Of a stretch of DNA of 19,784 nt, positions 1 through 19,784 are shown in pieces (positions within the stretch are counted from its first letter, which is position 1; the number at the start of each line of letters is the position of its first letter). Position numbers and translations under genes: made by a program. Below the pieces are notes generated by a model. It was given only the letters and a program-made list of their open reading frames with translations. It did not search any database and was not told the origin of the DNA. The DNA is from a virus. Lineage: Duplodnaviria > Heunggongvirae > Uroviricota > Caudoviricetes. Location: IMG/VR virus record IMGVR_UViG_2690316049_000007, positions 1 through 19,784 of that record; one strand, 5' to 3'.

Positions 1-477
1 TCATACCTCAATCTCTCTGACCGTTCCGCCTGCTTCTTTGAATTTTGCAATCAGGCTGTCAGCCTTATGCTCGAACTGACCATAACCAGCCCCCGGAAGT
101 GAAGCCCAGATATTGCTGCAACGGTCGATAGCCTGACGGATATCACCGCGATCAATCATCGGCAAAGCGCCACGCTCTTTAATCTGTTGCAATGCCACAG
201 CGTCCTGGCTTTTCGGAGAGAAGTCTTTCAGGCCAAGCTGCTTGCGGTAGGCATCCCACCAACGGGAAAGAAGCTGGTAACGTCCGGCTGCTGTTGATTT
301 GAGTTTTGGGTTTAGCGTGACAAGTTTGCGAGGGTGATCGGAGTAATCAGTGAATAGCTCTCCGCCAACAATGACGTCATAACCATGATTTCTTGTTTTC
401 TGACGTCCGTTATCAGTTCCCTCTGACCACGCCAGCATATCGAGGAACGCCTTACGTTGATTATTGATTTCCACCAT
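1..477 (-). CDS. R: Phage endolysin, lambda R-type lytic transglycosylase (158 aa)
   Basis: Complete minus-strand ORF. Translation ([27 protein letters not shown]...GGTVREIEV) matches lambda R as I recall it nearly residue for residue. ATG at 477-475, stop at 3-1. Confidence 0.9.
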
Positions 478-784
478 CTTCTACTCCGGCTTTTTTAGCA
501 GCGAAGCGTTTGATAAGCGAACCAATCGAGTCAGTACCGATGTAGCCGATGAACACGCTCGTTATATAAGCGAGATTGCTACTTAGTCCGGCGAAGTCGA
601 GAAGGTCACGAATGAACCAGGCGATAATGGCGCACATCGTTGCGTCGATTACTGTTTTTGTAAACGCACCGCCATTATATCTGCCGCGAAGGTACGCCAT
701 TGCAAACGCAAGGATTGCCCCGATGCCTTGTTCCTTTGCCGCGAGAATGGCGGCTAACAGGTCATGTTTTTCTGGCATCTTCAT
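461..784 (-). CDS. S: Class I holin, lambda S-type (107 aa) with Met1-Lys2-Met3 dual-start motif
   Basis: Translation [32 protein letters not shown]... matches lambda S as recalled. ATGs at 784-782 and 778-776 give the holin/antiholin dual start. The 3' end overlaps the R start. Confidence 0.9.
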
Positions 785-1028
785 GTCTTACCCCCAATAA
801 GGGGATTTGCTCTATTTAATTAGGAATAAGGTCTATTACTGATAGAACAAATCCAGGCTACTGTGTTTAGTAATCAGATTTGTTCGTGACCGATATGCAC
901 GGGCAAAACGGCAGGAGGTTGTTAGCGCGACTTCCTGCCACCCGCTTTCACGAGGTCATGTGTAGAAGGCCGCAGCGTAACTATCACCGATGAATTCATG
1001 ATAGCCAGTGGCTACGACTCAGTTTGGA

Positions 1029-1155
1029 TTGTGGCGGCCGGAATCGAACCGGCTTCCATCGGTGCGCTGCCGATTGCAGTACGCGCGGCGGTCAGCTACA
1101 TGACTAGTATTTTCACTGTCGCCTATCTGCTAGCTCGCCATTGAGCTTCACCACA
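1029..1155 (-). ncRNA. tRNA-like element, non-canonical (T-arm, anticodon-like arm and acceptor/D-arm-like 5' part separated by about 57 nt)
   Basis: Minus strand reads ...ATCGG-CAGCGCA-CCGAT-GGAA-GCCGG-TTCGATT-CCGGC-CGCCACA-A. This gives a canonical T-arm with TTCGATT loop and a 5-bp stem with 7-nt loop before it. A 5' TGTGGTG (1155-1149) can pair with CGCCACA with one G-U, followed by a D-arm-like GCTC-AATGGC-GAGC. The total is about 127 nt, with no encoded CCA and a loop that has A at position 33 and C at 37, so it is not a standard tRNA. Confidence 0.35.
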
Positions 1156-1220
1156 ACGATAAGAGCACTCGGTGCATTTAAGCCAAGCCCCATAAGGGAG
1201 AATGCTCTTACCTGTTGTGC

Positions 1221-1249
1221 AAACAAAAAAAGCCCACAGGAGGTGGGCT
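1221..1249 (-). terminator. Rho-independent terminator, tR'-like, downstream of the late promoter
   Basis: Minus strand AGCCCAC-CTCCT-GTGGGCT followed by TTTTTTTGTTT: 7-bp GC-rich stem, 5-nt loop, U-run. Confidence 0.6.
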
Positions 1250-1290
1250 TGTGATGGTTGCTGAATGCAAAAGCAGCAGCATATGTGAAT

Positions 1291-1320
1291 ATTATGGCTA
1301 AATGGCTAATTGCATGTCAA
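1291..1320 (-). promoter_or_regulatory. Candidate late promoter pR' (-35 TTGACA, 18-bp spacer, -10 CATAAT) overlapping the 3' end of Q
   Basis: Minus strand TTGACA (1320-1315), 18 nt, CATAAT (1296-1291). Sits at the Q stop and about 60 nt upstream of the tR'-like terminator, the expected position for the Q-modified late promoter. Confidence 0.45.
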
Positions 1321-1816
1321 GGCTTTTAACAGCAAGATGCTTAACTTTCTCAACACGTTTACGCATTTTGAAAGCATTTTGCATTGGTTGGTACAAAACA
1401 AATAATGACGCTTTCAGGATGTCGTCAATTTCGTTTCTACAGGTTGCCAGTGAAGGTTTTCTCCATCCCTCGCCACCACGTCCACACATCTTGCGTGGCT
1501 TTGCAGTCGCGTGATAGTAGGATGCAATTGCTCGCTTAGATGAACCATGAGCGTAGTAGCTGAGGAGGATGCCAAAGGCTTTCTTGTCAATGTACATGAC
1601 GGAATCAACGACCTGAGAAATCAACATTCCATCATCATCATTACACATTGGCCTTGTCATAACTCTTCCCGGCTCTACGCTCTCCATGAACTTCGCTATT
1701 ACGCTGCTCATGCGCTTTTCCAGACGACCTGAATAAACCCATGCGCCCCACAGTTCAAGCCAGCCATTCAGCCACTCGTGCTGCTCTTTGGTGAGGTTTA
1801 GTTCTCTTATGCCCAC
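1298..1816 (-). CDS. Q: Late-gene antitermination protein Q (phage 82/21, QuuD-like family), 172 aa, GTG start
   Basis: Position between nin region and lysis genes. Motifs ELWGAW ... CNDDDGML ... LLSYYAHG resemble the Q/QuuD family as recalled (ERWGAW, ICDDDAM, LLVDYYVVG). GTG at 1816 preceded by GGGAGAAGG. Confidence 0.8.
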
Positions 1817-2478
1817 GCGCCTTCTCCCTGTACCTGAATCAATGTGAGGTTTCCGCAGAACACTGCGCCGGTATCGATATACATCTGGTTGGAAAACTTG
1901 AGTGGTTTCACTGCTGGCGTATGACCAAAGATGAACGTGTCCGCGCCTTTGATTTCTTTCACGATCCCGTCTTGTGAGTTGCTGATTCGTTCGCGGTTCC
2001 AGATTACCTGCTGATGATCAACTGGCTTTCCAAACTCGTATTTATCACAAGGATAATCGGCGTGGCAGATGACATATTTTTTACCTTTGCTCACCAGTTC
2101 GATGATTAACGGAAGTTCACCTGCTTTATGGGCAAGAGCTTTAGCCAGAATTTCTTTGTCGTAATCGAGATTAAAGAACCAGCCACCGCCATTAAGCAGC
2201 CAGTGATTGACGTTTCCATGCTCTGATAAGCCATCAATCATCATTTGCTCATGGTTTCCACGTACAGCTCTGAACCAGGGGAATGTGATTAATTCCAGGC
2301 ATTCGACGTTCTCTGTACCGCGATCAACCAAATCGCCCACCGAGATAAGCAGGTCTTTTTTGGTGTCGAATCCTATCGTCTCCAGTTTTTTCATCAGGTT
2401 CGTGTAGCATCCGTGCAGATCGCCAACTACCCAAATATTTCGGTATTTGCTGCCATCAATTCTTTCGTAATAGCGCAT
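1807..2478 (-). CDS. ninI: Ser/Thr protein phosphatase (lambda PPase, NinI/orf221 homolog)
   Basis: Translation from [25 protein letters not shown]... with GDLVDRG and GNHE metallophosphatase motifs matches lambda phosphatase as recalled. Start placed at ATG 2478 (GGAG upstream) rather than the longer ORF start at 2553. Confidence 0.9.
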
Positions 2479-2662
2479 CTCTTTCACTCCATCCGCGATG
2501 AACCATGAGAACGTCGTTGACGATGGCGTGCATTTTCCCGTCTTTATCATCAACGTATTTTCTGACCGTACCGCGACTACATTTCAGTCTGCGTGCTACT
2601 TCTGTCTGATTTCCGTATGCTTCAACGAGCATGTCTGGAATGGTTTTTACTGAGAACGTCAT
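2456..2662 (-). CDS. ninH: NinH (lambda orf68 homolog), 68 aa
   Basis: Size and position match lambda NinH. ATGA overlap with ninG stop at 2662-2659. Confidence 0.8.
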
Positions 2663-3270
2663 GCGGCCTCACTTCTGCTATTTCGCAGGTCTTTGAGTTT
2701 CTGTTGGTACTCTGCCTTGATCGCCTTGCACTCTTCGATAGTCCAGCGATGGCGGTTATGGTTTGATTCGATTTCGTCTACTGCTTCCTGCCCGATGCGG
2801 CTAATCAGTTCGACGCGATACGGAACGAGATTTCCGCTTTTGTGCTGGTTGCACACCACGCATTGCTTGTGAATATTGCGTTCATCAAATCGGAGTTGAG
2901 GTGCCGCAGCAGTTGTCCGGTAATGCCCGGCATCCCACTGAGCAGACGTGAGCGTTCCGCACGAGATACATGGTAAGTCGCGGTCTCTTTCTCTGATGAA
3001 GGCGTTTACGGCTTGTTGGGCTTGTTTAATCCAGTAACTGCGGGGCTTTAAGGCGAGTTTTCGAATCTTAAGTTTATCTTTCTGTTTCTGCTCCTCTCGT
3101 CGTCGTTTCTTCTCTGCTGCCTTTTCCGCTTTTTCGCGTTCTTTGCTTCGTCGTTCGAGTGCTATCTTGGTTCCACACTCTGGAGAGCACCACCACTGAT
3201 TAGCGAATGCAGGGTGAAACCATTCCCGACATTCTTCGTTTTTACATCGTCTTCGCGCTAGTTTGGCCAT
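2659..3270 (-). CDS. ninG: NinG / Rap recombination-associated endonuclease (203 aa)
   Basis: Cys-rich N-terminus ([10 protein letters not shown]...CSPECG), basic coiled segment and Cys/His-rich C-terminus, size about 204 aa, position between ninF and ninH as in lambda. Confidence 0.85.
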
Positions 3271-3439
3271 CGTCTTCTTCCTCGTACATTGAACTATTCG
3301 GATCGCTCATCAGTTCTGCGCAGCAGTGCTCACACACGTGAACTTCCAGCACATGCAGCTTCTGACCGCAGTTAGCGCACGTTAAAGCTCGCTCGACGCT
3401 TTCTTTCTGGTATTGAAGGGATTGGGATGGGCTAAGCAT
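3242..3439 (-). CDS. ninF: NinF-like small Cys-rich protein (65 aa)
   Basis: [46 protein letters not shown]... matches lambda NinF as recalled. Overlaps the ninG start. Confidence 0.8.
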
Positions 3440-3815
3440 TATTGGCGTCCTGCATCATGAGAAAGACAATCATGGCGGCACGGAGTGGATTGTCATATGC
3501 GACACCAACATTCGGTCCGGCATCATCAAACAAGTCCCTTGCGTTGTCTGTAGCGCACGGCATTGAGGGATTGTCTAAAATTATGCTGATGTTGTTTTCA
3601 GTGATAATCGGCCATGCGTCTGCTGGGTTTGCGCATGGGTTAAAGGATCCGCGCTCAACCTCTACTTCAACTGCGTCTCCGTTTACAATGTCTCCCTCAA
3701 ATGAGATAAACACCATCGCGCCATTCTCACCTTCTTTGTAATCCGGTGATCCGTTATGAATGGCTTCGAATACCGCCACGTTAATTTCAAAATCACTTAA
3801 CTGTGAATAATCCAT
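3432..3815 (-). CDS. Hypothetical nin-region protein (about 127 aa; ORF extends to 3857 with a GTG)
   Basis: Long minus-strand ORF in gene-dense nin region. Most plausible start is ATG 3815 (MDYSQLSDF...) with GAGG 8 nt upstream. Acidic protein, no motif recognised. Confidence 0.6.
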   Translation of the reverse strand: MDYSQLSDFEINVAVFEAIHNGSPDYKEGENGAMVFISFEGDIVNGDAVEVEVERGSFNPCANPADAWPIITENNISIILDNPSMPCATDNARDLFDDAGPNVGVAYDNPLRAAMIVFLMMQDANNA

Positions 3816-3960
3816 TGTCATTTCCTCGCACGATGTCTTAGCCACCGGATATCCCACAGGTGAGCCGTGTAGTTGAAGGTTTTTACGTCAGATTCTTTTG
3901 GGATTGGCTTTGGTTTATTTCTGGAGCGTTTCGTTGGAAGGTATTTGCAGTTTTCGCAGA

Positions 3961-4135
3961 TTATGTCGGTAATACTTCGTCGCTGTCTCGCCACACGTCC
4001 TCCTTTTCCTGCGGTAGTGGTAACACCCCTGTTGGTGTTCTTTCACACCGGAGACACCATCGATTCCAGTAAGGTTGTCCTGGTCGAAAGCGATCGTCTT
4101 CCTTTCGCTCTCCACATCGATAACAGTGCTTCATG
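3961..4135 (-). CDS. Small zinc-ribbon protein at the NinE position (57 aa)
   Basis: ATG 4135-4133 overlaps the methyltransferase stop (ATGA). [32 protein letters not shown] carries two CxxC pairs. A competing overlapping frame (3915-4115) exists. Confidence 0.45.
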
Positions 4136-4721
4136 CGATCACCATTTTGCATGGTTTAATCGCCATGCCTGGAGCCAGTTCAAAATCGGAGTCGCACTGA
4201 TTTCCCCACATATCCCACCCGGTCACTTTGTCGCGGCTAAATAACTCACAGCGCGGCACGTCGCCAAGCAACTTAGCTAACATGTCTCTTACGATCGGTG
4301 GTTTTGCACTGTGCTCCATTCTCGGTGCGGTAAAGTGCTGGCATATTGAAGCGTCCATTCTCTCAGGTAACCGCCCTCGAACGGCAAACAAGCAATCCTC
4401 GCTATTTGCCCGGGTCATATGCCCCATTCCGATCGCACTGTTGCCTTTGTGCTTATTGGTTTTGTGCCAAGTAAAGCCTTTCATAGTCATCAACCTGAAT
4501 CCCCACGCCTCAATTACCTTTAGCGCTTCGGCTGGCTGTGTCGGCACCCACCACATCGCTAACAAGCAAGATTCTGGATCCGCTAAATCCCATACTGGCA
4601 GTCGGCAAATGTCCTGAACATTCATAACATCGTATTTATGTCCAGCACCGCGATTGCCATCGTTGGCTTTGTCGCGATATTGCCAAGGCGGATCTGCGTA
4701 AATAAGTTGGTATTTGTTCAT
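4131..4721 (-). CDS. DNA N6-adenine methyltransferase, MT-A70 family (DPPW motif), 196 aa
   Basis: [15 protein letters not shown]... shows the DPPW catalytic motif near the N-terminus, typical of MT-A70-like orphan phage methyltransferases. ATGA overlap with ninB stop. Confidence 0.85.
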
Positions 4722-5158
4722 TCAGTTTTATCTCCCCATCTCGCTTTCCACTCCAGAGCCAGTCGCGCTTCGTCTGACCACTTAACGCCACGCTCTGTAC
4801 CGAATGCCTGTATAAGCTCTAATAGCTCCGCAAATTCGCCTACACGCATCCTGCTGGTTGACTGGCCTATTACCACAAAGCCATTCCCGGCAAGGTTAGG
4901 AACAACATCCTGCTGCTTTAATGCTGCGGTAAACACACACTTCCAGCTTTCTGCATCCAGCCAGCGACCATGCCATTCAACCTGACGAGAGACGTCACCT
5001 AAGCAGGCCCATAGCTTCCTGTTTTGGTCTAAGCTGCGGTTGCGTTCCTGAATGGTTACTACGATTGGTTTGGTTGGGTCTGGAAGAATTTGCTGTACCG
5101 CGTGAATAGCGTTTTGCTGATGTGCTGGAGATCGAATTTCAAAGGTTAGTTTTTTCAT
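4718..5158 (-). CDS. ninB: NinB (recombination mediator, lambda orf146 homolog)
   Basis: From MKKLTFEIRSPAHQQNAIHAVQQILPDPTKPIVVTIQERNRSLDQNRKLWACLGDVS... matches lambda NinB as recalled. Start at ATG 5158 with GGAGAGGGAAG upstream; the ORF-track start at 5176 is probably too long. Confidence 0.9.
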   Translation of the reverse strand: MKKLTFEIRSPAHQQNAIHAVQQILPDPTKPIVVTIQERNRSLDQNRKLWACLGDVSRQVEWHGRWLDAESWKCVFTAALKQQDVVPNLAGNGFVVIGQSTSRMRVGEFAELLELIQAFGTERGVKWSDEARLALEWKARWGDKTE

Positions 5159-5173
5159 GACTTCCCTCTCCCC

Positions 5174-5206
5174 CAAATAAAAAGGCCTGCGATTACCAGC
5201 AGGCCT
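5174..5206 (-). terminator. Rho-independent terminator between helicase and ninB (tR2-like position)
   Basis: Minus strand AGGCCTGC-TGGTAATC-GCAGGCCT followed by TTTTTATTT: 8-bp stem. Confidence 0.5.
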
Positions 5207-5234
5207 GTTATTAGCTCAGTGATGTAGATGGTCA

Positions 5235-7700
5235 TCAGAATCCTCCTTTCTTCTTGGACTGCGGTTCCTCGCGTTCACGGCGGCGCATTTCAGCAGACTG
5301 TTGGTCTGTGTCATAAATAGCGCCATTTGCCTGAATGCAATACACCGTGCCGGTATTGCCATGACGATTGAGACGAAGGATTAGTTCGGTTTCACCAGGT
5401 GGAACACTGTCATCAAAAGCACCTTCACGATGGATCCCCACCCAATAATCGCAATCCTGTTCAATCTGCCCTGTATCTCGTGAGTCACTTGGTAATGGGC
5501 GTTTATTGGTTCGGCTTTCCAGTGCGCGGTTAAGCTGCGTCAGAAGCACAACAACGCAATCAAGCTCTTTGGCAAGGTTCTTCAGTCCTTTGGTGATCAT
5601 GCCGTAAGCAAGGTCGTTGCGATCGGCCTTCTCAGCGGTCATTAGTGTCAGGTAATCGACCAGAATCATGCCAACACATCCTTTTTCTCGCTTGATTCGA
5701 CGGCTTTCGCTGACGATTTGAGCCAGAGATAATCCCGGCGTGTCGTCGATGTAAAGCATGTCGATTTCACTCAAGCGATTAGCTGTTTCGATCGCCCTGT
5801 TGAAGTCACCATCGTAATCACCCTGATAGCCGTCATCAGCGTCATTTGTCGCCGGAAGGTAAAAAATATTCGGGTTAACACCTGACTTCTGTCCTACCAG
5901 TTTTTCCAGTATCTGGTCACCGGGCATTTCAAGGCTGAACATCAGAGCGGGCTTTTTCTCATGCACTGCGCAGTTGATTGCCATCTGGCTGTATAGCGTG
6001 GTGTTGTGGGTTAGAATGTATCCGTCAGTTGCATACAAATGTCTCTCGTGGGATACCATGATGCAAATGCACTCTTCACGTCCAATATACTCAACCGACG
6101 TGATAACAGGCGCACTTGTTTTGATGCGTTTTGCAGTGAATTTTTGCTTCAGGCGTGGAGATTTTATGTGTGATAGAACCTCATCAGGCAACCTGATTGC
6201 GCAAATATGGGCATCCATACCTTTGCGCATTTCTCCCTTATAACTGAATTTCGGCTCCTGTTTGGTTGTCATACGACACACGCCACCAAGAGAATGCACC
6301 AGCCGCTTTACACCATCTGACAGGAACTTGCTTGCCGAGCTAAAGCGCAGGGCATTATTTCCTTCAACCCAACCATCGGTTTCAAGTAATCCGCATAGAA
6401 CATCAATACGAGTTTGCTTATCAGCAGAAAAAATAATATCCGGGATAATTTTAATCTCTGACATCCGGCCGTAGATACCAAGCCGTTGCATAACCCGCGT
6501 AAGAGATAATTTGCGGCTAAACTTGTGAGATAGGGAGTAATCGCAGCCAGAAACATGCCTGACTTCAATATCGTCACCCACTTCAGATCTTACTCGCTCA
6601 ATGATGTATGGTTCCGTCATGCTGATTCGTGGCGTACCTGCAAGATTTCCATCACCAAGTAACGCACCTAACAGCCATGGGCTAATCCCTAAATCAACAG
6701 GCAATCCGAAGTCACCGCTAATACCAGGAACATGAATGCGGCTTTGATAGCGAACGCATTCCATCATGTCCCGTAGGCGGCAGGTGTCTACAACATCAAC
6801 GCCACCGGTAATACGGTTACTATGAATTTCCCACAAATGATCATCCGCGCAATCAACGGTTCTTCCGTCAGAGAACGTAACTCGGTAAATATCTCGCTCC
6901 CCTTGAGGAAAAACTCCAGACACGAATGATGGTTGTCCATCCACTGATGCTAGGGAATCTCCAACACATACGTCACGAAATGTTGTCCATGAACCATCAG
7001 CAAGCAAAATGCGTGAATTAAGCGGTTGCGCTTTCCCCATCTTAGGGCGAGCGCCAATGACAAACAGAGATCCTTTCACCAGACCTTTCGGTGACAGCAT
7101 CCTGTCCAGCGATGGGATCCCTGTGCTCATTCCTCGTTGTTCGCCTGACGGGTCAAATCGCTTCTCAAGGTCGCTAACCCAGTCTTCCATGACCTCGCCA
7201 AATGAGCGAAGGCCGCGACGCGATCCGGTTTTTGCATGGTCTGTCAGTTGCGTGAAAATCGCCTGAATAGCTTCGTACTTCTGCGTTGCAGTCATTCCGT
7301 TGCGGGAATAGAGCAATTCCGTCGCTTCAGTCATGCGGTTGATGGCGTAGCGTTCCATTGCGGTTTCACGAACCTGCATTGCATAGGCAACGATGTTTGC
7401 TGCGCTTGGCGTGTTCTTTGCGATCTCAGCGATATAAGCAAAACCGCCAACAGACGCCGTTAACGATTTGCGATCCAGTTCATCGAAAAGCGTCAGGCCA
7501 TCTACTGGCTTTTGCTCCCGGTGCATTCTGGTTATTTCTTCGAAAAGGATTTTGTGTGGTCGGCTGTAAAATGAATCAGGCTTCAGCATCGCCAGAACTT
7601 TCTGGACGCGCTCACTGCTGTCATCATCCAGAAGCAATCCACCAATCACCGCCTGCTCTGCCTCGATGCTATGGGGCGGCGCATAAAAATTATCGGTCAT
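5235..7700 (-). CDS. Replicative DNA helicase, DnaB family (P22 gene 12-like), interrupted in-frame by an intein; precursor about 821 aa
   Basis: N-terminal PPHSIEAEQAVIGGLLLD, Walker A GARPKMGK then TTLYSQ, Walker B ILVDYLTLM, and LTQLNR...DSRDTGQIEQDCD are DnaB motifs. Walker A is split by 343 extra residues. Start placed at ATG 7700 (GAGGGTG upstream); the ORF track uses GTG 7715. Confidence 0.9.
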   Translation of the reverse strand: MTDNFYAPPHSIEAEQAVIGGLLLDDDSSERVQKVLAMLKPDSFYSRPHKILFEEITRMHREQKPVDGLTLFDELDRKSLTASVGGFAYIAEIAKNTPSAANIVAYAMQVRETAMERYAINRMTEATELLYSRNGMTATQKYEAIQAIFTQLTDHAKTGSRRGLRSFGEVMEDWVSDLEKRFDPSGEQRGMSTGIPSLDRMLSPKGLVKGSLFVIGARPKMGKAQPLNSRILLADGSWTTFRDVCVGDSLASVDGQPSFVSGVFPQGERDIYRVTFSDGRTVDCADDHLWEIHSNRITGGVDVVDTCRLRDMMECVRYQSRIHVPGISGDFGLPVDLGISPWLLGALLGDGNLAGTPRISMTEPYIIERVRSEVGDDIEVRHVSGCDYSLSHKFSRKLSLTRVMQRLGIYGRMSEIKIIPDIIFSADKQTRIDVLCGLLETDGWVEGNNALRFSSASKFLSDGVKRLVHSLGGVCRMTTKQEPKFSYKGEMRKGMDAHICAIRLPDEVLSHIKSPRLKQKFTAKRIKTSAPVITSVEYIGREECICIMVSHERHLYATDGYILTHNTTLYSQMAINCAVHEKKPALMFSLEMPGDQILEKLVGQKSGVNPNIFYLPATNDADDGYQGDYDGDFNRAIETANRLSEIDMLYIDDTPGLSLAQIVSESRRIKREKGCVGMILVDYLTLMTAEKADRNDLAYGMITKGLKNLAKELDCVVVLLTQLNRALESRTNKRPLPSDSRDTGQIEQDCDYWVGIHREGAFDDSVPPGETELILRLNRHGNTGTVYCIQANGAIYDTDQQSAEMRRREREEPQSKKKGGF
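6003..7031 (-). mobile_element. Intein (343 codons) in the helicase P-loop, with LAGLIDADG homing-endonuclease domain
   Basis: Insert lies between GARPKMGK (K codon 7034-7032) and TTLYSQ (T codon 6002-6000). It ends with LTHN before +1 Thr. Two LAGLIDADG-type motifs: LLGALLGDGNL (6674-6642) and VLCGLLETDGW (6401-6369). Block B-like DDHLW and block F-like EECICIMV are present. Confidence 0.8.
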
Positions 7701-14607: not shown

Positions 14608-15087
14608 ATGAAAGTCTGCTCAAGATGCCATCAACAGAAGGAAGAAAGGGACTTTCAAATCAGAAGAGCATCCAGAGATGGATTAACTGCCGCTTGCCGG
14701 GCTTGCCTGGCTGAATACGACAAAGAACGCGCTGGATTGCCACATCGAGTATCAGCAAGGAGAGAATATCAATCATCGGAACGCGGAAGAGAACGGTGTA
14801 ACGCAGCCAAAAAGCGGTTCATTCAGAGCAACCCATGGAAAAGAAAAGCCCACATCATTGTGGGTAATTTTTTGCGCGACGGTAAGCTAATCCGACCACC
14901 ACAATGTGAGTGCTGCGGATCAGAATGTAAACCACAGGCGCACCACTGCGACTACAGCAAACCAACCGATGTGATGTGGCTCTGCAAGTCATGTCATGTC
15001 GAGTGGCACAAACATAACAAACCTATCTACCCAGACGAGGAACCAGTAACTCTCCCCTTCCCTCGTCACGCTATTCACGCAATTTAA
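14608..15087 (+). CDS. HNH-like zinc-finger protein (putative HNH endonuclease), 159 aa
   Basis: AGGAG RBS. N-terminal CxxC...CxxC, C-terminal CECCGSECKPQAHHCDYSKPTDVMWLCKSCHVEWH, which fits the CxxC...HH...CxxCH HNH architecture. Confidence 0.65.
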   Translation: MKVCSRCHQQKEERDFQIRRASRDGLTAACRACLAEYDKERAGLPHRVSARREYQSSERGRERCNAAKKRFIQSNPWKRKAHIIVGNFLRDGKLIRPPQCECCGSECKPQAHHCDYSKPTDVMWLCKSCHVEWHKHNKPIYPDEEPVTLPFPRHAIHAI

Positions 15088-15095
15088 GGACTTAC

Positions 15096-15644
15096 ATGAA
15101 TCACTTAATGGTTGACCTTGAAACAATGGGCAACGGGCCATATGCGCCAGTTATTTCTATTGGTGCGGTATTCTTTGACCCGAATACCGGAGAAACAGGA
15201 GAAGAGTTCTCGGTAAATATCTCGCTTGAGTCATCAATGCGATATCGGGCGCGTCCTGACGCTTCAACGATTTTATGGTGGATGGAACAGAGTGAAGAAG
15301 CCAGAAAATCGCTAACCAGCAACACTCAAGAGCTTTCAACGGCTCTTTCATGGTTATCTGAATTCATCATAAAGAACGCTAACCACAAATTCGTTCAGGT
15401 TTGGGGGAATGGAGCATCATTTGACTGCGTTATTCTCCGAAACAGTTATTCACTGACAGGGCAGCCAGTTCCGTGGCAGTGGTGGAATGACCGCGACGTA
15501 AGAACAATCGTCGAACTTGGGAAGGTAATAGGATTCGACCCTAAGCGAGATATGCCATTCAAAGGAACTCGCCACAACGCGCTTGATGATGCCATTCACC
15601 AAGCCAAATACGTTTCAGCGATCTGGAAAAAGTTAGCTAAATAA
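15096..15644 (+). CDS. DEDDh-family 3'-5' exonuclease (DnaQ-like), 182 aa
   Basis: MVDLETMG (Exo I motif), GNGASFDCVIL (Exo II-like), TRHNALDDAIHQA (Exo III with His), typical of phage 3'-5' exonucleases. Confidence 0.85.
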   Translation: MNHLMVDLETMGNGPYAPVISIGAVFFDPNTGETGEEFSVNISLESSMRYRARPDASTILWWMEQSEEARKSLTSNTQELSTALSWLSEFIIKNANHKFVQVWGNGASFDCVILRNSYSLTGQPVPWQWWNDRDVRTIVELGKVIGFDPKRDMPFKGTRHNALDDAIHQAKYVSAIWKKLAK

Positions 15645-15660
15645 TCAACAGGAGAAAACC

Positions 15661-15957
15661 ATGCCAGCGCCTCTATATGGTGCGGACGACCCGCGCCGCT
15701 GTTCCGGCAATTCCATATCGGAGGTGCTGGAAAATATCAAGAATAATCTCGACGCGTTTCTTGCTCTGCCACCGGAAACAAAAGAAGAACGGAAGTACCG
15801 ACGCGATATACAACTCGCAGAAAAACAGGAAAAAGACCGAATAAACGAAACATCAATCCGACCATTCCGCAAATCCATATATACCCACTTCCCTGAATAT
15901 ATCGACCCGCGCCTGCGTAATTACCGCTCACGCTATGGCGCTATCAGTAATGACTGA
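15661..15957 (+). CDS. Hypothetical protein (98 aa)
   Basis: ORF with AGGAGA RBS. No recognised motif. Confidence 0.6.
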
Positions 15958-15967
15958 GGAATTTACC

Positions 15968-16135
15968 ATGAGAGGACTTGCATACAATCCCGGCATTCTT
16001 CCGGCAGAAATGATTATTCGCCAACGCGTAAAGCCAATGCCATCGAGAGAGGAATTGCTTAAAAGGAAGAGTTTCGGTTCTGTTAATGACAACAAATATC
16101 TGAATGCGATGTGGCGTAAAGGAGTCAAGCAGTGA
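15968..16135 (+). CDS. Small hypothetical protein (55 aa)
   Basis: ATG 15968 with GAGGAA RBS. Stop overlaps the GTG of the next gene. Confidence 0.4.
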
Positions 16136-16569
16136 GCAAGATTGATTATCAAAAGCTTCGTGAAATCGCTGAAAAAACAAAAATTGCTGGTGAAGCACCT
16201 GTAATGCCTTTCGATCAGCGAATTAATGCGCTTAACGATTTTATGAAGCACTTTTCGCCAGATATCGCGCTGGCACTGCTGGATGAACGGGAAAGGAACC
16301 AGCAATACATCAAACTCCGCGATCAGGAGAACGAGGAAATTGCGCTAACGGTAGGGAAACTGCGTGTTGAGCTGGAAGCCGCAGAGAAGCGCATTGCTGA
16401 GCTGCAGTTGCGGGAGGTTGTGCTTCCGCAATGCTATAGCATGTTGCATCGCGTCGATTTTGACGAGCCTTACCACACTGAAATGGTTTACAGGCAGCAT
16501 CAGGTTCTTGAGGCACTGCACAACGCTGGAATAAACGTCACCGAAGCAGGTAAAGGAGAGGCATCATGA
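16132..16569 (+). CDS. Ead/Ea22-like family protein (145 aa), GTG start
   Basis: GTG with AAGGAG RBS. N-terminal [17 protein letters not shown]... and central coiled region resemble the Ead/Ea22-like proteins of P22-like phage early-left regions as recalled. Confidence 0.65.
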
Positions 16570-17120
16570 GCACTATTCCCAAAGAACGTCTGGAACAATT
16601 AGCATCTGGAAACGCATGGTATTGCGTTCAAGATGACGAAGCGGCTGAGCTGGCGCGTATCGCGCTGGCATCGCTGGAAGCAAAACCAGTTGCTTATATT
16701 TTCAAACATCCGGCCGGGAAATTATTCTGGGCTTTGACGGATGAAAGCAATAAAGATCAATCGGACGTTATTCCTGTTTATGCTGCCTCACCTGCACCAA
16801 TAGCGTCGGAGGCCATTGAAAACGCTATTGAATACATCCGCAGTATCGCTTTTCACATCGATGAAGACGATTACCACGGCAAACATATTGCGTATTTCAT
16901 GCGACAAGCATTGGCCTGGCTGGAAGGGCATTCATGCAGTGATGACAGTCAGGGCAAATCCGATAATTCACCATTGCCGCGCTACCAGGTGATCGAATTA
17001 ACAATGCTGGTTAAACAATTGGTCAGCCAACTGAAAAAAGCAAAACCTGATTGCAAATTACCTGATAGGGCGATGGATTATCTTTTGCGAAACGAACTGG
17101 TAAGTGCGGAGGGGGTTTAA
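16566..17120 (+). CDS. Hypothetical protein (184 aa)
   Basis: ATGA-coupled to upstream gene, AAGGAGAGG RBS. No recognised motif. Confidence 0.7.
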   Translation: MSTIPKERLEQLASGNAWYCVQDDEAAELARIALASLEAKPVAYIFKHPAGKLFWALTDESNKDQSDVIPVYAASPAPIASEAIENAIEYIRSIAFHIDEDDYHGKHIAYFMRQALAWLEGHSCSDDSQGKSDNSPLPRYQVIELTMLVKQLVSQLKKAKPDCKLPDRAMDYLLRNELVSAEGV

Positions 17121-17122
17121 CG

Positions 17123-17701
17123 ATGACCATTTCTACAAAAAAGCCTCTTTATGCTGAGGTTCACAATGTTCCTGATGATTATGAGTTCACTGACGAGGAA
17201 CTAAACAGAATTATTGCAGGTGATATGTTCACTCCTCGTCAGGACGCAATAATGGCACGGGAGATACAGAAACTCCGCGCCGCCATGCTTCATGGTGCAG
17301 AACCTGTAAAACAGACTTACAAGTTGCCTCCCCTGCCATCCAGCGAAGTAAACGAAGCGGCATGGAGATTACACAACATGCTTACTGAATGCATCCCTCT
17401 AAATGGTCATCAGTTCAACAATCTGAAGGGTTGGTTCTATGAGGCGTTAAAGGTCGCAATGCGCAACTATCCGGTAAATCCGGATGGTTGGATAAGCTGT
17501 AGTGAGCGAATGCCGGATACCAAAACAGCCGTTCTTGTTGCCAAGGAGTTTGATAGGAAAGGTGACTGGCGAATGAAATGGGCGACTTACATCCCGGGGC
17601 ATCCTGACGCTAATGATGGGTGGATCATTCCTGGGGCGTCGTGGAAACCGTCACACTGGATGCCGCTACCAGAACCGCCGCAGGAGGTTAACCGTGGCTA
17701 A
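17123..17701 (+). CDS. DUF551-like domain protein (192 aa)
   Basis: C-terminal ...GWIIPGASWKPSHWMPLPEPP fits the HWMPLPEPP-type signature I associate with the phage DUF551 domain. GGAGGGGG RBS. Confidence 0.7.
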   Translation: MTISTKKPLYAEVHNVPDDYEFTDEELNRIIAGDMFTPRQDAIMAREIQKLRAAMLHGAEPVKQTYKLPPLPSSEVNEAAWRLHNMLTECIPLNGHQFNNLKGWFYEALKVAMRNYPVNPDGWISCSERMPDTKTAVLVAKEFDRKGDWRMKWATYIPGHPDANDGWIIPGASWKPSHWMPLPEPPQEVNRG

Positions 17702-17733
17702 CCTGCAACTTGCCGTTAAAGGTGAATAACAAT

Positions 17734-17759
17734 CCTCGCACTCGCGGGGATTTCTTTTA
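17734..17759 (+). terminator. Candidate rho-independent terminator
   Basis: CCTCGC-ACTC-GCGGGG (one G-U) followed by ATTTCTTTTAT. Confidence 0.4.
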
Positions 17760-17800
17760 TCTGAACTCGCTACGGCGGGTTTTGTTTTATGGAGATGATT

Positions 17801-18100
17801 ATGGCCTGTTCAACATTCAACCATCTAACGTTACAGAAATACCAGACAGACCCTGAAGATTTATGCTCACTGTGTGGCGGAAATCATGGTAAAGCCGCCA
17901 TGATCGAATGTAAGGACAAAATCCACATTTGCCTTAATTGCGTTGATGTCCTCGTTGATATCAAAAATGAGAGAGAAGATAAAAAGCGTAGCGAGGCTGT
18001 TCGCGCCTTAGATTCATGGATGAGGGATGGATATAGTGCCGCGCAAATTTATGACTTAGCAATATCAAAAGGCGAAATACCAGGAGTGCGTATCGAATAA
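17801..18100 (+). CDS. Hypothetical Cys-rich protein (about 100 aa)
   Basis: ATG 17801 with GGAG 6 nt upstream. CSLCGG...CLNC suggests a zinc ribbon. Confidence 0.6.
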   Translation: MACSTFNHLTLQKYQTDPEDLCSLCGGNHGKAAMIECKDKIHICLNCVDVLVDIKNEREDKKRSEAVRALDSWMRDGYSAAQIYDLAISKGEIPGVRIE

Positions 18101-18142
18101 GACGTAACCAACATTCGAATTGAAGAACTGAAAGAACACCAA

Positions 18143-18165
18143 GCCGCCTGATGGCGGTTTTTTAT
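18143..18165 (+). terminator. Rho-independent terminator
   Basis: CCGCC-TGAT-GGCGG followed by TTTTTTTATTT. Confidence 0.65.
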
Positions 18166-18208
18166 TTCCTGATTTGCAGGTTCGATTCCCTATTCGGAGA
18201 TAGCACTC

Positions 18209-18409
18209 ATGCAACACGAACTACAACCTGATTCACTGGTTGATTTGAAATTCATCATGGCTGATACTGGCTTCGGTAAAACCTTCATCTACGACCGGAT
18301 TAAGTCCGGCGACCTGCCTAAAGCCAAAGTTATCCACGGGCGAGCAAGATGGTTATATCGTGACCATTGTGAATTCAAAAATAAGCTCTTAAGCCGCGCC
18401 AATGGGTAA
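18209..18409 (+). CDS. AlpA/Xis-like small HTH DNA-binding protein (putative excisionase or regulator), 66 aa
   Basis: LKFIMADTGFGKTFIYDRIKSGDLPKAKVIHGRARWLYRD fits the AlpA/excisionase HTH pattern. Lies at the distal end of the leftward operon where xis is expected. Confidence 0.7.
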   Translation: MQHELQPDSLVDLKFIMADTGFGKTFIYDRIKSGDLPKAKVIHGRARWLYRDHCEFKNKLLSRANG

Positions 18410-18885
18410 AATAGCGGGTAAAATATTTCTCACATCTAAAAAACACCATTCCAATCAATCCCCTGCCTCGTCAAGTAGATGTCTGCAGGGGACACCAGAT
18501 ACCCTTCAAACGAAATCTACCTTCACCCCGTAAAAGATGGGTTTGGCAGCACACTTGCCTTATATCTACTCATTTTTACTGCAACAGGTTGAAATCTCAG
18601 CACTGTCAGAAAGCGCTGATGACTAAACAGCCCTGGGCCGGGCGATGTAACCATCACACAGAATCCTGATAGCGAAATATGGCGTGACTCGATACTTCAC
18701 TCCGCAATGCATTCCTTGATGAATTCGCAGGACCGTGATACACGGGACAGGTCACTGAATGACGACAATGTCCTGGAAATCAGCGAACCGCGCATCTGAA
18801 GTACATTTGAGCGACTGTACCAGAACATGAATGAGGCGTTTGGATTAGGCGATTATTAGCAGGGCTAAGCATTTTACTATTATTA

Positions 18886-18929
18886 TTTTCCGGTTGAGGG
18901 ATATAGAGCTATCGACAACAACCGGAAAA
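18886..18929. repeat. Perfect 11-bp inverted repeat (TTTTCCGGTTG / CAACCGGAAAA) with 22-bp spacer, 10 bp downstream of the permease stop
   Basis: Arms 18886-18896 and 18919-18929 are exact reverse complements. No adjacent U-run on either strand. Confidence 0.6.
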
Positions 18930-18938
18930 AGTTTACGT

Positions 18939-19784
18939 CTATATTGCTGAAGGTACAGGCGTTTCCATAACTATTTGCTCGCGTTTTTTACTCAAGAAGA
19001 AAATGCCAAATAGCAACATCAGGCAGACAATACCCGAAATTGCGAAGAAAACTGTCTGGTAGCCTGCGTGGTCAAAGAGTATCCCAGTCGGCGTTGAAAG
19101 CAGCACAATCCCAAGCGAACTGGCAATTTGAAAACCAATCAGAAAGATCGTCGACGACAGGCGCTTATCAAAATTTGCCACGCTGTATTTGAAGACGGAT
19201 ATGACACAAAGTGGAACCTCAATAGCATGTAACAGCTTCACTAATGAAATAATCCAGGGGTTAACGAACAGCGCGCAGGAAAGGATACGCAACGCCATAA
19301 TCACAACACCGATAAGTAATGCATTTTTTGGCCCTACCCGATTCACAAAGAAAGGAATAATCGCCATGCATAGCGCTTCGAGTACCACCTGGAATGAGTT
19401 GAGATAACCATACAGGCGCGTTCCTACATCGTGTGATTCGAATAAACCTGCATAAAAGACAGGAAAAAGTTGTTGATCAAAAATGTTATAGAAAGACCAC
19501 GTCCCCACAATAAATATGACGAAAACCCAGAAGTTTCGATCCTTGAAAACTGCGATAAAATCCTCTTTTTTTACCCCTCCCGCATCCGCCGCTACGCACT
19601 GGTGATCCTTATCTTTAAAACACATGTTGATCATCATAAATACAGCGCCAAATAGCGAGACCAACCAGAAGTTGATATGGGGACTGATACTAAAAAATAT
19701 GCCGGCAAAGAACGCGCCAATAGCATAGCCAAAAGATCCCCAGGCGCGCGCTGTTCCATATTCGAAATGAAAATTTCGCGCCAT
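18939..19784 (-). CDS. LacY-family (oligosaccharide:H+ symporter) MFS permease, C-terminal 281 codons; 5' end lies beyond the window
   Basis: Hydrophobic multi-helix protein with FNIFDQQLFPVFY and GPKNALLIG segments paralleling LacY (YDVFDQQFANFF, GGKNALLLAG) as recalled, but divergent. ORF runs to the window edge. Confidence 0.85.
   Translation of the reverse strand: MARNFHFEYGTARAWGSFGYAIGAFFAGIFFSISPHINFWLVSLFGAVFMMINMCFKDKDHQCVAADAGGVKKEDFIAVFKDRNFWVFVIFIVGTWSFYNIFDQQLFPVFYAGLFESHDVGTRLYGYLNSFQVVLEALCMAIIPFFVNRVGPKNALLIGVVIMALRILSCALFVNPWIISLVKLLHAIEVPLCVISVFKYSVANFDKRLSSTIFLIGFQIASSLGIVLLSTPTGILFDHAGYQTVFFAISGIVCLMLLFGIFFLSKKREQIVMETPVPSAI

Follow-up and report, generated by a model that had tools for sequence, protein, structure and literature searches.

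The DNA analysed here is a stretch of 19,784 nucleotides (positions 1 to 19,784 of the IMG/VR virus record IMGVR_UViG_2690316049_000007, Caudoviricetes), referred to as the window. The window is part of a P22/Sf6-like (lambdoid) prophage of Escherichia coli. Its replicative helicase gene is interrupted in the Walker A P-loop by an in-frame insertion of 343 codons. This insertion is confirmed as real, beyond a chance pattern. Sequence comparison and structural modelling suggest that it is very probably a class 3 intein of full length, which occupies the P-loop of a phage helicase of the DnaB family, and for which a splicing and homing mechanism can be proposed. The element extends a known intein family to a new host gene and clade; the understanding of inteins is unchanged.

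The insertion and the helicase gene

The minus-strand reading frame is unbroken from 5235 to 7715, and codes for 826 amino acids when counted from an upstream GTG. The ATG at 7700 is the start used in the homologues (Sf6 gene 44 and the RefSeq fragment), and gives a precursor of 821 amino acids. Within this frame, positions 6003-7031 on the minus strand translate to 343 codons (AQPLNS...YILTHN), which are preceded by GARPKMGK and followed by TTLYSQ. The insertion point is located between the Lys and Thr residues of the Walker A motif (GARPKMGK/TT; the slash marks an insertion point or junction). Removal of the 1029 nt leaves a 1452-nt gene, which aligns without gaps to gene 44 of Shigella phage Sf6 with 13 mismatches. 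The restored protein is GARPKMGKTTLYSQ, and its junction is identical to that of Sf6 gp44 (GARPKMGKTT). The boundaries are fixed to the nucleotide: at neither end of the insert is the terminal base the same as the corresponding base of the flank. The coordinates of all these features are listed in Table 1.

The predicted spliced sequence has the DnaB N-terminal domain and the RecA-like C-terminal domain, with a complete Walker A motif (GxxxxGK[TS]). The NCBIfam model TIGR03600 ('phage replicative helicase, DnaB family') matches the precursor with 558 bits, above the cutoff of 498.65, in two stretches; of these, the C-terminal one restarts at residue 567, where the C-extein begins, at profile position 208 of 421. 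An earlier note, made from the sequence alone, had described a DnaB-type helicase with an exact insertion of 343 residues between GARPKMGK and TTLYSQ, whose removal restores the P-loop, and which ends with His-Asn followed by Thr. The exact insertion and the restored P-loop are borne out by the gapless alignment with the intein-free Sf6 gene; the PF00772, PF03796, and TIGR03600 matches agree with the host gene; and the translation reads LTHN/T at the second junction. The residue numbers of that note (229-571) cover the same span, with the numbering running from the GTG; counted from the ATG, the intein residues are 224-566 of the precursor.

Table 1. Features of the helicase gene, its intein, and the adjoining elements in the window. 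Conservation refers to the best 150 of 15,603 intein relatives.
Feature	Position	Strand	Remarks
Helicase precursor gene	5235..7700	-	821 codons + TGA; DnaB-family phage replicative helicase
N-extein, 223 aa	7032..7700	-	DnaB N-terminal domain, linker, and first half of Walker A (...GARPKMGK); Pfam PF00772, E 1.4e-30; colinear with Sf6 gp44
Intein, 343 aa	6003..7031	-	Predicted class 3 HINT splicing domain interrupted by LAGLIDADG homing-endonuclease domain; sequence, profile, and model evidence
Block A (AQPLNSRILLADG)	6993..7031	-	Residue 1 is Ala (GCG at 7029-7031), no N-terminal nucleophile
Block B (GRTVDCADDHLWEI)	6825..6866	-	His65 (B:10) and Trp67 (B:12, 'W' of WCT), within ADDHLW
First LAGLIDADG motif (LLGALLGDGNL)	6642..6674	-	Intein residues 120-130; acidic Asp127; model helix 118-125 spans the first part of the motif
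Second LAGLIDADG motif (VLCGLLETDGW)	6369..6401	-	Intein residues 211-221; acidic Asp219, Asp in 148/150 relatives
Block F (EECICIMVSHERHLYA; EECICIMV...)	6030..6077	-	Cys323 (codon 6063-6065) is F:4, the predicted initiating nucleophile
Block G (YILTHN) + Thr+1	6000..6020	-	Thr341 (G:5), His342, Asn343; Thr+1 codon ACC at 6000-6002
C-extein, 255 aa + stop	5235..6002	-	Remaining RecA-like ATPase domain, begins TTLYSQ; Pfam PF03796, E 2.1e-53
O-like replication initiator gene	7690..8580	-	PHROG 345, E 5.8e-85; adjoins the helicase gene upstream, stop and start overlapping
Terminator-like GC-rich hairpin, then T-run	5183..5206	-	~30 nt downstream of the helicase stop
Empty site, window type			GCTCGCCCTAAGATGGGGAAA/ACGACGCTATACAGCCAG
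Empty site, second type			…GGTAAA/ACCACGCTGTAT…

The occupied form of the gene was compared with its empty homologues. Among 5426 complete E. coli genomes, 391 contain this helicase type, and 16 of these have the gene at full length, with the intein. In the remaining ~375 genomes, the best match covers less than 80% of the query; those among the matches listed cover 59%, with ~99% identity. The empty form is also found in all 87 matching deposited phage genomes, including Sf6, VT2-Sakai, Stx1/Stx2 phages, and HK629. The intein itself, in any helicase type, is present in 18 of the 5426 complete E. coli genomes.

Splicing domain, fold, and known inteins

An intein is assigned to class 3 when it has no N-terminal nucleophile but does have Trp B:12, Cys F:4, and Thr G:5 (the WCT triplet); the +1 residue is usually Ser or Thr, and rarely Cys (PMC2807308, PMC3196547). 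The window insert has no Cys, Ser, or Thr at position 1, and contains Trp B:12, Cys F:4, Thr G:5, and Thr+1. The Ala1 residue with the WCT triplet and Thr+1 therefore points to class 3, to which the canonical Cys1/Ser1 mechanism is inapplicable. The Thr+1 residue doubles as the Walker A Thr. The same double role, as splicing nucleophile and P-loop residue, is known for Ser+1 of the Mycobacterium smegmatis intein DnaBi1 (PMC6195587).

Homologues of the intein were searched with HMMER among 1.84 billion representative proteins, and 15,603 relatives were identified, of which 2,794 have E <= 1e-30. A word-indexed protein search gave 28 matches, which suggested a rare family; this was ruled out by the exhaustive search. 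The best relatives are mostly proteins of ~800 amino acids, with the intein near residue 220. The relatives looked at closely (P0029, P0003, and P0005) are DnaB-family helicases with a split P-loop. Residue conservation was counted over the best 150 of the 15,603 relatives. Trp B:12 and His B:10 are conserved in 150/150, and the C-terminal T-H-N in 149/150; the +1 residue is T or S in 148/150, and the -1 residue is Lys in 139/150. Position 1 is Ala in 118/150, and Cys or Ser in about 5. Cys323 is taken as the conserved nucleophile, because Cys F:4 is found in 149/150 of these relatives and Cys321 (F:2) in just 38/150.

A different splicing chemistry was also considered, in which Thr+1 might attack the N-terminal junction directly, as in a class 2 (KlbA-like) intein, and Cys323 would be a structural residue. 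Class 2 KlbA inteins also have Ala1; however, in Mja KlbA, the member that was studied, Cys+1 is used, and inteins of the KlbA type lie outside the WCT group (PMC2807308). The full WCT triplet with Thr+1 co-varies with class 3 chemistry in the studied members (PMC2807308, PMC6195587), and the near-invariance of Cys F:4 among the best relatives also argues against this chemistry, which is considered very improbable.

The class 3 assignment is consistent with the known protein structures. A phmmer search against the PDB sequences identified the gp41-1 intein (E 1.5e-8) and M. smegmatis DnaBi1 (6bs8, E 1.3e-6); further matches include MchDnaB-1 of M. chimaera (6rix/6riy), PI-SceI, and the Prp8 inteins. 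In the alignment with DnaBi1, Cys323 falls on the block F cysteine of ...VRCVEV... (6bs8), and Trp67 on the Trp of HQW. The DnaBi1 residues at these positions are named Cys118 and Trp67 (PMC6195587). In the PHROGs, the intein matches just the 'DNA primase', 'terminase large subunit', and 'DnaC-like helicase loader' families; these matches presumably stem from intein-carrying members of the families.

The fold of the intein (343 residues) was predicted by AlphaFold2 from a 21-sequence alignment, with a mean pLDDT of 90.2 and a pTM of 0.90. The Foldseek search of the whole model against the PDB identified PI-SceI as the best match (E 3e-16, TM 0.74), followed by the Tli/Pho VMA inteins, PI-PkoII, and PI-PfuI, each of which is an intein that has a LAGLIDADG endonuclease. 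When the splicing domain is taken alone, it can be superposed on 6bs8, 6rix, and 6riy, which are DnaB inteins of class 3, at 2.3-2.4 Å, with 26-29% identity. The model also superposes on the Ssp/Npu DnaB inteins and the Hedgehog autoprocessing domain. The endonuclease fold is placed between splicing blocks B and F, and this domain alone matches I-DmoI and I-Tsp061I in Foldseek. At the sequence level, the Pfam model LAGLIDADG_3 matches residues 211-257 of the isolated insert (25.1 bits, cutoff 22.5), and intein residues 191-256 match residues 298-365 of PI-SceI, in the second LAGLIDADG region. The LAGLIDADG domain is apparently active. A promoter scan within the gene gave no excess of matches over shuffled sequence; a separately transcribed endonuclease is thus unsupported, because promoter matches are no more frequent than in shuffled sequence.

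The earlier note had also read the insert as an intein with two LAGLIDADG-type motifs. The intein reading is supported by the profile search, the PDB sequence matches, the model, and the empty alleles; the two motifs agree with the LAGLIDADG_3 match, the PI-SceI sequence match, and the AlphaFold model. The note overlooked the Ala1 residue, and hence the class 3 identity, which rules out the canonical Cys1/Ser1 mechanism.

The mycobacterial DnaB P-loop class 3 inteins (M. smegmatis DnaBi1, 6bs8; M. leprae; M. chimaera MchDnaB-1, 6rix/6riy) are found in the same DnaB family. They occupy the same point, between the Walker A Lys and a Ser/Thr which serves as the +1 nucleophile (site 'b'; PMC6195587). 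They likewise have Ala1 and the WCT triplet, and His65 and Trp67 have the same residue numbers. However, these are mini-inteins of ~140 amino acids which have lost the endonuclease (PMC6195587), whereas the window intein has 343 amino acids and a LAGLIDADG domain. They are located in the chromosomal, essential dnaB of Actinobacteria and use Ser+1; the window intein is located in an enterobacterial phage helicase and uses Thr+1. The redox disulfide partner Cys48 of DnaBi1 is absent from the window intein, where it aligns to Ile, and B:7 is Ala instead of Asp.

The intein in the P primase-helicase of phages phi24B and Min27, which is carried by many Stx2a phages, has 46% identity over 343 residues, and is the closest in deposited phage genomes. 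It is also located in the P-loop of a lambdoid phage replication protein (GVNGHGK/ACPLNEP...CLCIMV...ATHN/TEV). It shares Ala1, GDHLW, CLCIMV, THN/T, the WCT triplet, and two LAGLIDADG motifs. However, its host protein is non-orthologous: a TOPRIM primase fused to a gp4-like helicase, in contrast to the DnaB-family helicase of the window. In sequence, the two inteins have diverged considerably. The DNA target must differ, because the flanking exteins differ (GVNGHGK/TEV versus GARPKMGK/TTL). The phi24B intein was reported in 2012 by Smith et al. (PMC3430580), and Shigella flexneri prophage primase inteins ('ShP-Sfv ... Primase') were InBase entries by 2009 (PMC2807308, section 7). The P gene of Min27 (L003, NC_010237.1, 1888-4470) is annotated as 'putative replication protein P' with no intein feature, and many Stx2a-phage records show the intein-bearing P region without any annotated feature.

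The DnaB intein of mycobacteriophage Bethlehem (MP-Be DnaB) is the class 3 prototype, with 341 amino acids, a phage helicase as host protein, and a LAGLIDADG endonuclease (PMC2807308). By its published description, it resembles the window intein in Cys320 (F:4), Thr339-His340-Asn341, Thr+1, and the absence of an N-terminal nucleophile (PMC2807308). Experiments by Tori et al. (2010, PMC2807308) demonstrated that it splices via a branched intermediate at block F. It differs in its actinophage host, in having Pro1 instead of Ala1, and in its junction (...DQ/TKNTF versus GK/TT).

PI-SceI (the S. cerevisiae VMA1 intein) and the archaeal VMA and PI-PfuI inteins have the same two-domain layout (HINT and LAGLIDADG), and are the best structural matches. 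However, these inteins have ~454 amino acids, 14-16% identity, and other host proteins in other domains of life. PI-SceI follows class 1 chemistry, with Cys1 and Cys+1. Other relatives, with 40-59% identity, are located at the same site of lambdoid-prophage and bacterial DnaB proteins (one of these, P0029, has the gene context cI-cro-O-DnaB-NinG-Q-holin), and yet others in PhoH-like and other ATPases. No paper was found describing an intein in the Sf6 gp44 / HK022 P / VT2-Sakai P helicase type; a prior listing among class 3 inteins is possible. The window element is a natural full-length class 3 intein with an endonuclease in E. coli, as far as its sequence and model tell, and it has relatives in prophages of Salmonella and Shigella. 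Phage genetics in the native host could thus be used to study class 3 chemistry, homing, and conditional splicing, should the latter occur.

Mobility, selection, and proposed mechanism

The intein is found in more than one type of helicase. In the E. coli strains ET791 and ET846, it differs from the window copy at 4 of 1029 nt (99.6% identity); the DnaB-like helicase allele there is a different one (second type), with the intein in the same place of the P-loop. The second-type exteins share 62-64% DNA and 59-66% protein identity with those of the window. Empty second-type alleles also exist (TOK-001, ET896), and a third helicase type carries an intein variant with 81% identity. The window-type alleles that carry the intein are located in mosaic prophages with differing neighbour modules. 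In ET846 (NZ_CP100895.1, locus L005), two matching places were reported both for the intein DNA and for the second-type helicase. This genome may have two intein-bearing helicase genes, or one gene and a fragment, and homing may have occurred between prophages within it.

The bases next to the insertion point differ between filled and empty sites. All of the intein-bearing alleles read GGG AAA / intein / ACC ACG. The empty window-type sites read GGG AAA/ACG in all of at least 120 IMG/VR matches, and the empty second-type sites read GGT AAA/ACC in 11 of 14. The nearest type-specific differences further out, at -13 and +9, are unconverted. From these flank differences, the co-transferred flanks therefore measure at least 3 and less than 9 nt on the C side; for the N side, the limits are at least 4 and less than 13 nt. 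The combined patterns would be the footprint of recent endonuclease-initiated homing, which would be hard to obtain by general recombination at 37% divergence. With filled and empty sites in two diverged alleles and tiny co-conversion marks, this is an unusually clean natural record of intein invasion.

No extended co-conversion tract was found in the sliding-window identity profile of intein-bearing versus empty alleles of both helicase types. The raised identity at the junction is ordinary P-loop conservation, because the empty alleles show it too. A megablast match between the second-type gene and window-type genomes, which extends 80-418 nt past the intein, was considered as a trace of co-conversion; this was ruled out by the same profile. 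The empty second-type sites (IMG/VR loci L143-L156) include 3/14 that read GGG AAA/ACC, as in all intein-bearing alleles. These could be an ancestral donor-type site, or the result of precise intein loss.

The intein copies were further examined for selection. The reading frame is intact in all 14 copies inspected (the window; L004 and L005, two E. coli loci whose helicase is a different one; and 11 contigs of IMG/VR). The intein of L018 (IMG/VR) has 81% DNA and 87% protein identity to the window copy. The Nei-Gojobori dN/dS against L018 is 0.063 overall, 0.053 for the splicing domain, and 0.070 for the endonuclease domain; these ratios are approximate, with a dS of ~1.1 between the intein variants, near saturation. 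The substitution pattern clearly indicates purifying selection on both the splicing and the endonuclease halves.

The selection result bears on another explanation of the spread. The intein might splice with an inactive endonuclease, and be carried among mosaic lambdoid phages by homologous or modular recombination. The lambdoid prophages are highly mosaic, the helicase module is found in different flanks across the contigs, and no long co-conversion tract is visible, all of which would fit such a spread. However, the movement of 1029 nt between alleles of 62-64% identity, with flanks of less than 9-13 nt, needs both crossovers at the junction; break-initiated repair gives such crossovers, whereas general recombination rarely does. 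Moreover, the endonuclease domain has a dN/dS like that of the splicing domain, and both catalytic Asp residues are retained. Spread without an active endonuclease is thus regarded as unlikely.

The annotation of these genes suggests a different picture. No feature is annotated over the intein in 18/18 RefSeq complete genomes. Each of the 16 window-type genes is split in the annotation into an 'N-terminal domain-containing' and a 'C-terminal domain-containing' feature. In all 3 RefSeq records inspected, PGAP flags both halves as incomplete pseudogenes ('incomplete; partial in the middle of a contig'), and the middle is unannotated. The helicase might thus be a dead pseudogene, disrupted by a non-splicing insertion in a decaying prophage. 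Truncated derivatives do occur, such as P0002, in which the N-terminal part of the intein is fused to a tail gene. However, the 821-codon frame is unbroken with all of the splicing residues present, the 14 intein frames are intact with a dN/dS of 0.06, and the surrounding prophage keeps the capsid, portal, terminase, lysis, Q, nin, O, cII, cro, and cI genes. Other NCBI records name the protein 'helicase DnaB': the identical 821-amino-acid protein is in NCBI nr as 'helicase DnaB [Escherichia coli]'. There is very little probability that the gene is dead, and the pseudogene split in RefSeq reflects an annotation rule, with no reading-frame lesion.

The nr cluster of this protein at 90% identity has 449 members, including proteins of Salmonella enterica serovar Alachua and Shigella boydii; among the 15 cluster members listed, none is named intein-containing. 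Owing to the PGAP/RefSeq split and the unannotated intein, protein-based intein surveys, and prophage-completeness calls in which the helicase counts as broken, will be wrong for these prophages. The P0002 protein mentioned above (NCBI/Logan, 235-kb contig) is a 565-amino-acid chimera, made up of the N-extein of the helicase and ~108 residues from the start of the intein (99% identical). It runs straight on into a tail-type protein (PF11134, phage stabilisation protein family). This is apparently a large internal deletion in a decaying prophage, which truncated the intein.

Several points weigh against a class 3 intein that splices and homes. The Pfam Hint-associated model Hom_end_hint matches the insert with 20.8 bits, below its cutoff of 32.1. 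In NCBIfam, no intein-specific model matches the insert, and the models of intein-containing proteins are all far below their cutoffs. The B:7 residue is Ala, and not Asp as discussed for DnaBi1, although the family shows variation at this position. The RefSeq pseudogene flags and the near-saturated dS described above belong here as well. The association of the flank markers across copies is not phylogenetically independent, and the N-side marker is weaker, as 3/14 empty second-type sites already have GGG. Finally, splicing, the branched intermediate, and endonuclease activity are predicted from the sequence, the modelled structure, and the population patterns.

The proposed mechanism of the class 3 intein was modelled on two inteins that have been studied by experiment, MP-Be DnaB (PMC2807308) and DnaBi1 of M. 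smegmatis (PMC6195587). In the precursor (predicted mass 91.7 kDa), the Walker A motif is split by 343 residues, so that ATP would be neither bound nor hydrolysed. Cys323 (F:4) would attack the Lys(-1)-Ala1 peptide bond, and form a thioester branched intermediate. The N-extein would then be transferred to the hydroxyl of Thr+1, and cyclisation of Asn343 would release the intein (predicted 38.3 kDa). An O-to-N acyl shift would give the active helicase (predicted 53.5 kDa) with GARPKMGKTT. The freed intein, or the precursor, might act as a homing endonuclease, which would cut the P-loop coding sequence of intein-free alleles when another phage is co-resident or co-infecting; the intein plus a few flanking bases would be copied in as the break is repaired. 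The helicase gene belongs to the early-right operon, so that production of the intein would be limited to the time after induction or infection. At that stage, the cell may also contain another phage genome whose empty site could be cut. Dependence of lytic replication of the prophage on protein splicing, which the earlier note had also proposed, would be a sound inference from the split P-loop.

A further role for the intein is conceivable, although it seems doubtful. Conditional (redox- or metal-sensitive), Cys323-dependent splicing might be a post-translational checkpoint that gates prophage replication. Cys321 and Cys61 (B:6) in the neighbouring splicing blocks might take part. After oxidative or other stress induction, maturation of the helicase would be held until replication can be productive. 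In DnaBi1, the block F cysteine can be reversibly trapped by oxidation or zinc. If true, a natural switch that works by conditional splicing would be seen for the first time in an E. coli phage, with a host that is easy to manipulate genetically.

Gene neighbourhood and other features of the window

The helicase gene has a 100% match in E. coli WCHEC115106 (NZ_CP043334.1). The annotated gene order there is lysis genes, Q, nin region, helicase, O-like gene, cII, cro, cI, pL operon, and torI. The ATG of the helicase gene (7698-7700) overlaps the 3' end of the upstream O-like gene by 11 nt. The O-like gene contains two clusters of three 11-nt direct repeats (TGGACAACCGT) at window positions 8089-8206, which are 66 nt apart. 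The position of these repeats is that of the putative lambda-like origin annotated in Sf6 gene 43. These iteron-type repeats are likely the replication origin for the O-like initiator and, once spliced, the helicase. The hairpin downstream of the helicase gene (Table 1) has the same relative position as the tR2-like terminator annotated in Sf6.

The Rfam search found no RNA family across the whole window. An open reading frame of 159 amino acids (14608-15087, plus strand) is located between ssb and a 3'-5' exonuclease gene, and is unannotated in RefSeq (497-nt gap). It matches PHROG 2340 'endonuclease' (E 2.5e-47), and its DNA is 99.8% identical to Sf6 gene 26, which is annotated as 'endonuclease' (NC_005344). 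It has no Pfam match; its N-terminus has a weak resemblance to the Lar-like and endonuclease VII families. The prophage also has two accessory genes. The nin region contains an MT-A70 family DNA methyltransferase gene (4131-4721, minus strand; Pfam E 2e-25). The gene at 11500-11865 (plus strand) codes for a protein homologous to the superinfection-exclusion protein of P22 gene 17 (PF17420, E 2.5e-55). Within 18409-19784, the prophage ends past a torI-like excisionase gene without an adjacent integrase, followed by ~530 nt without annotation. Beyond these lies a bacterial oligosaccharide MFS transporter gene, which is a RefSeq pseudogene with an internal stop.

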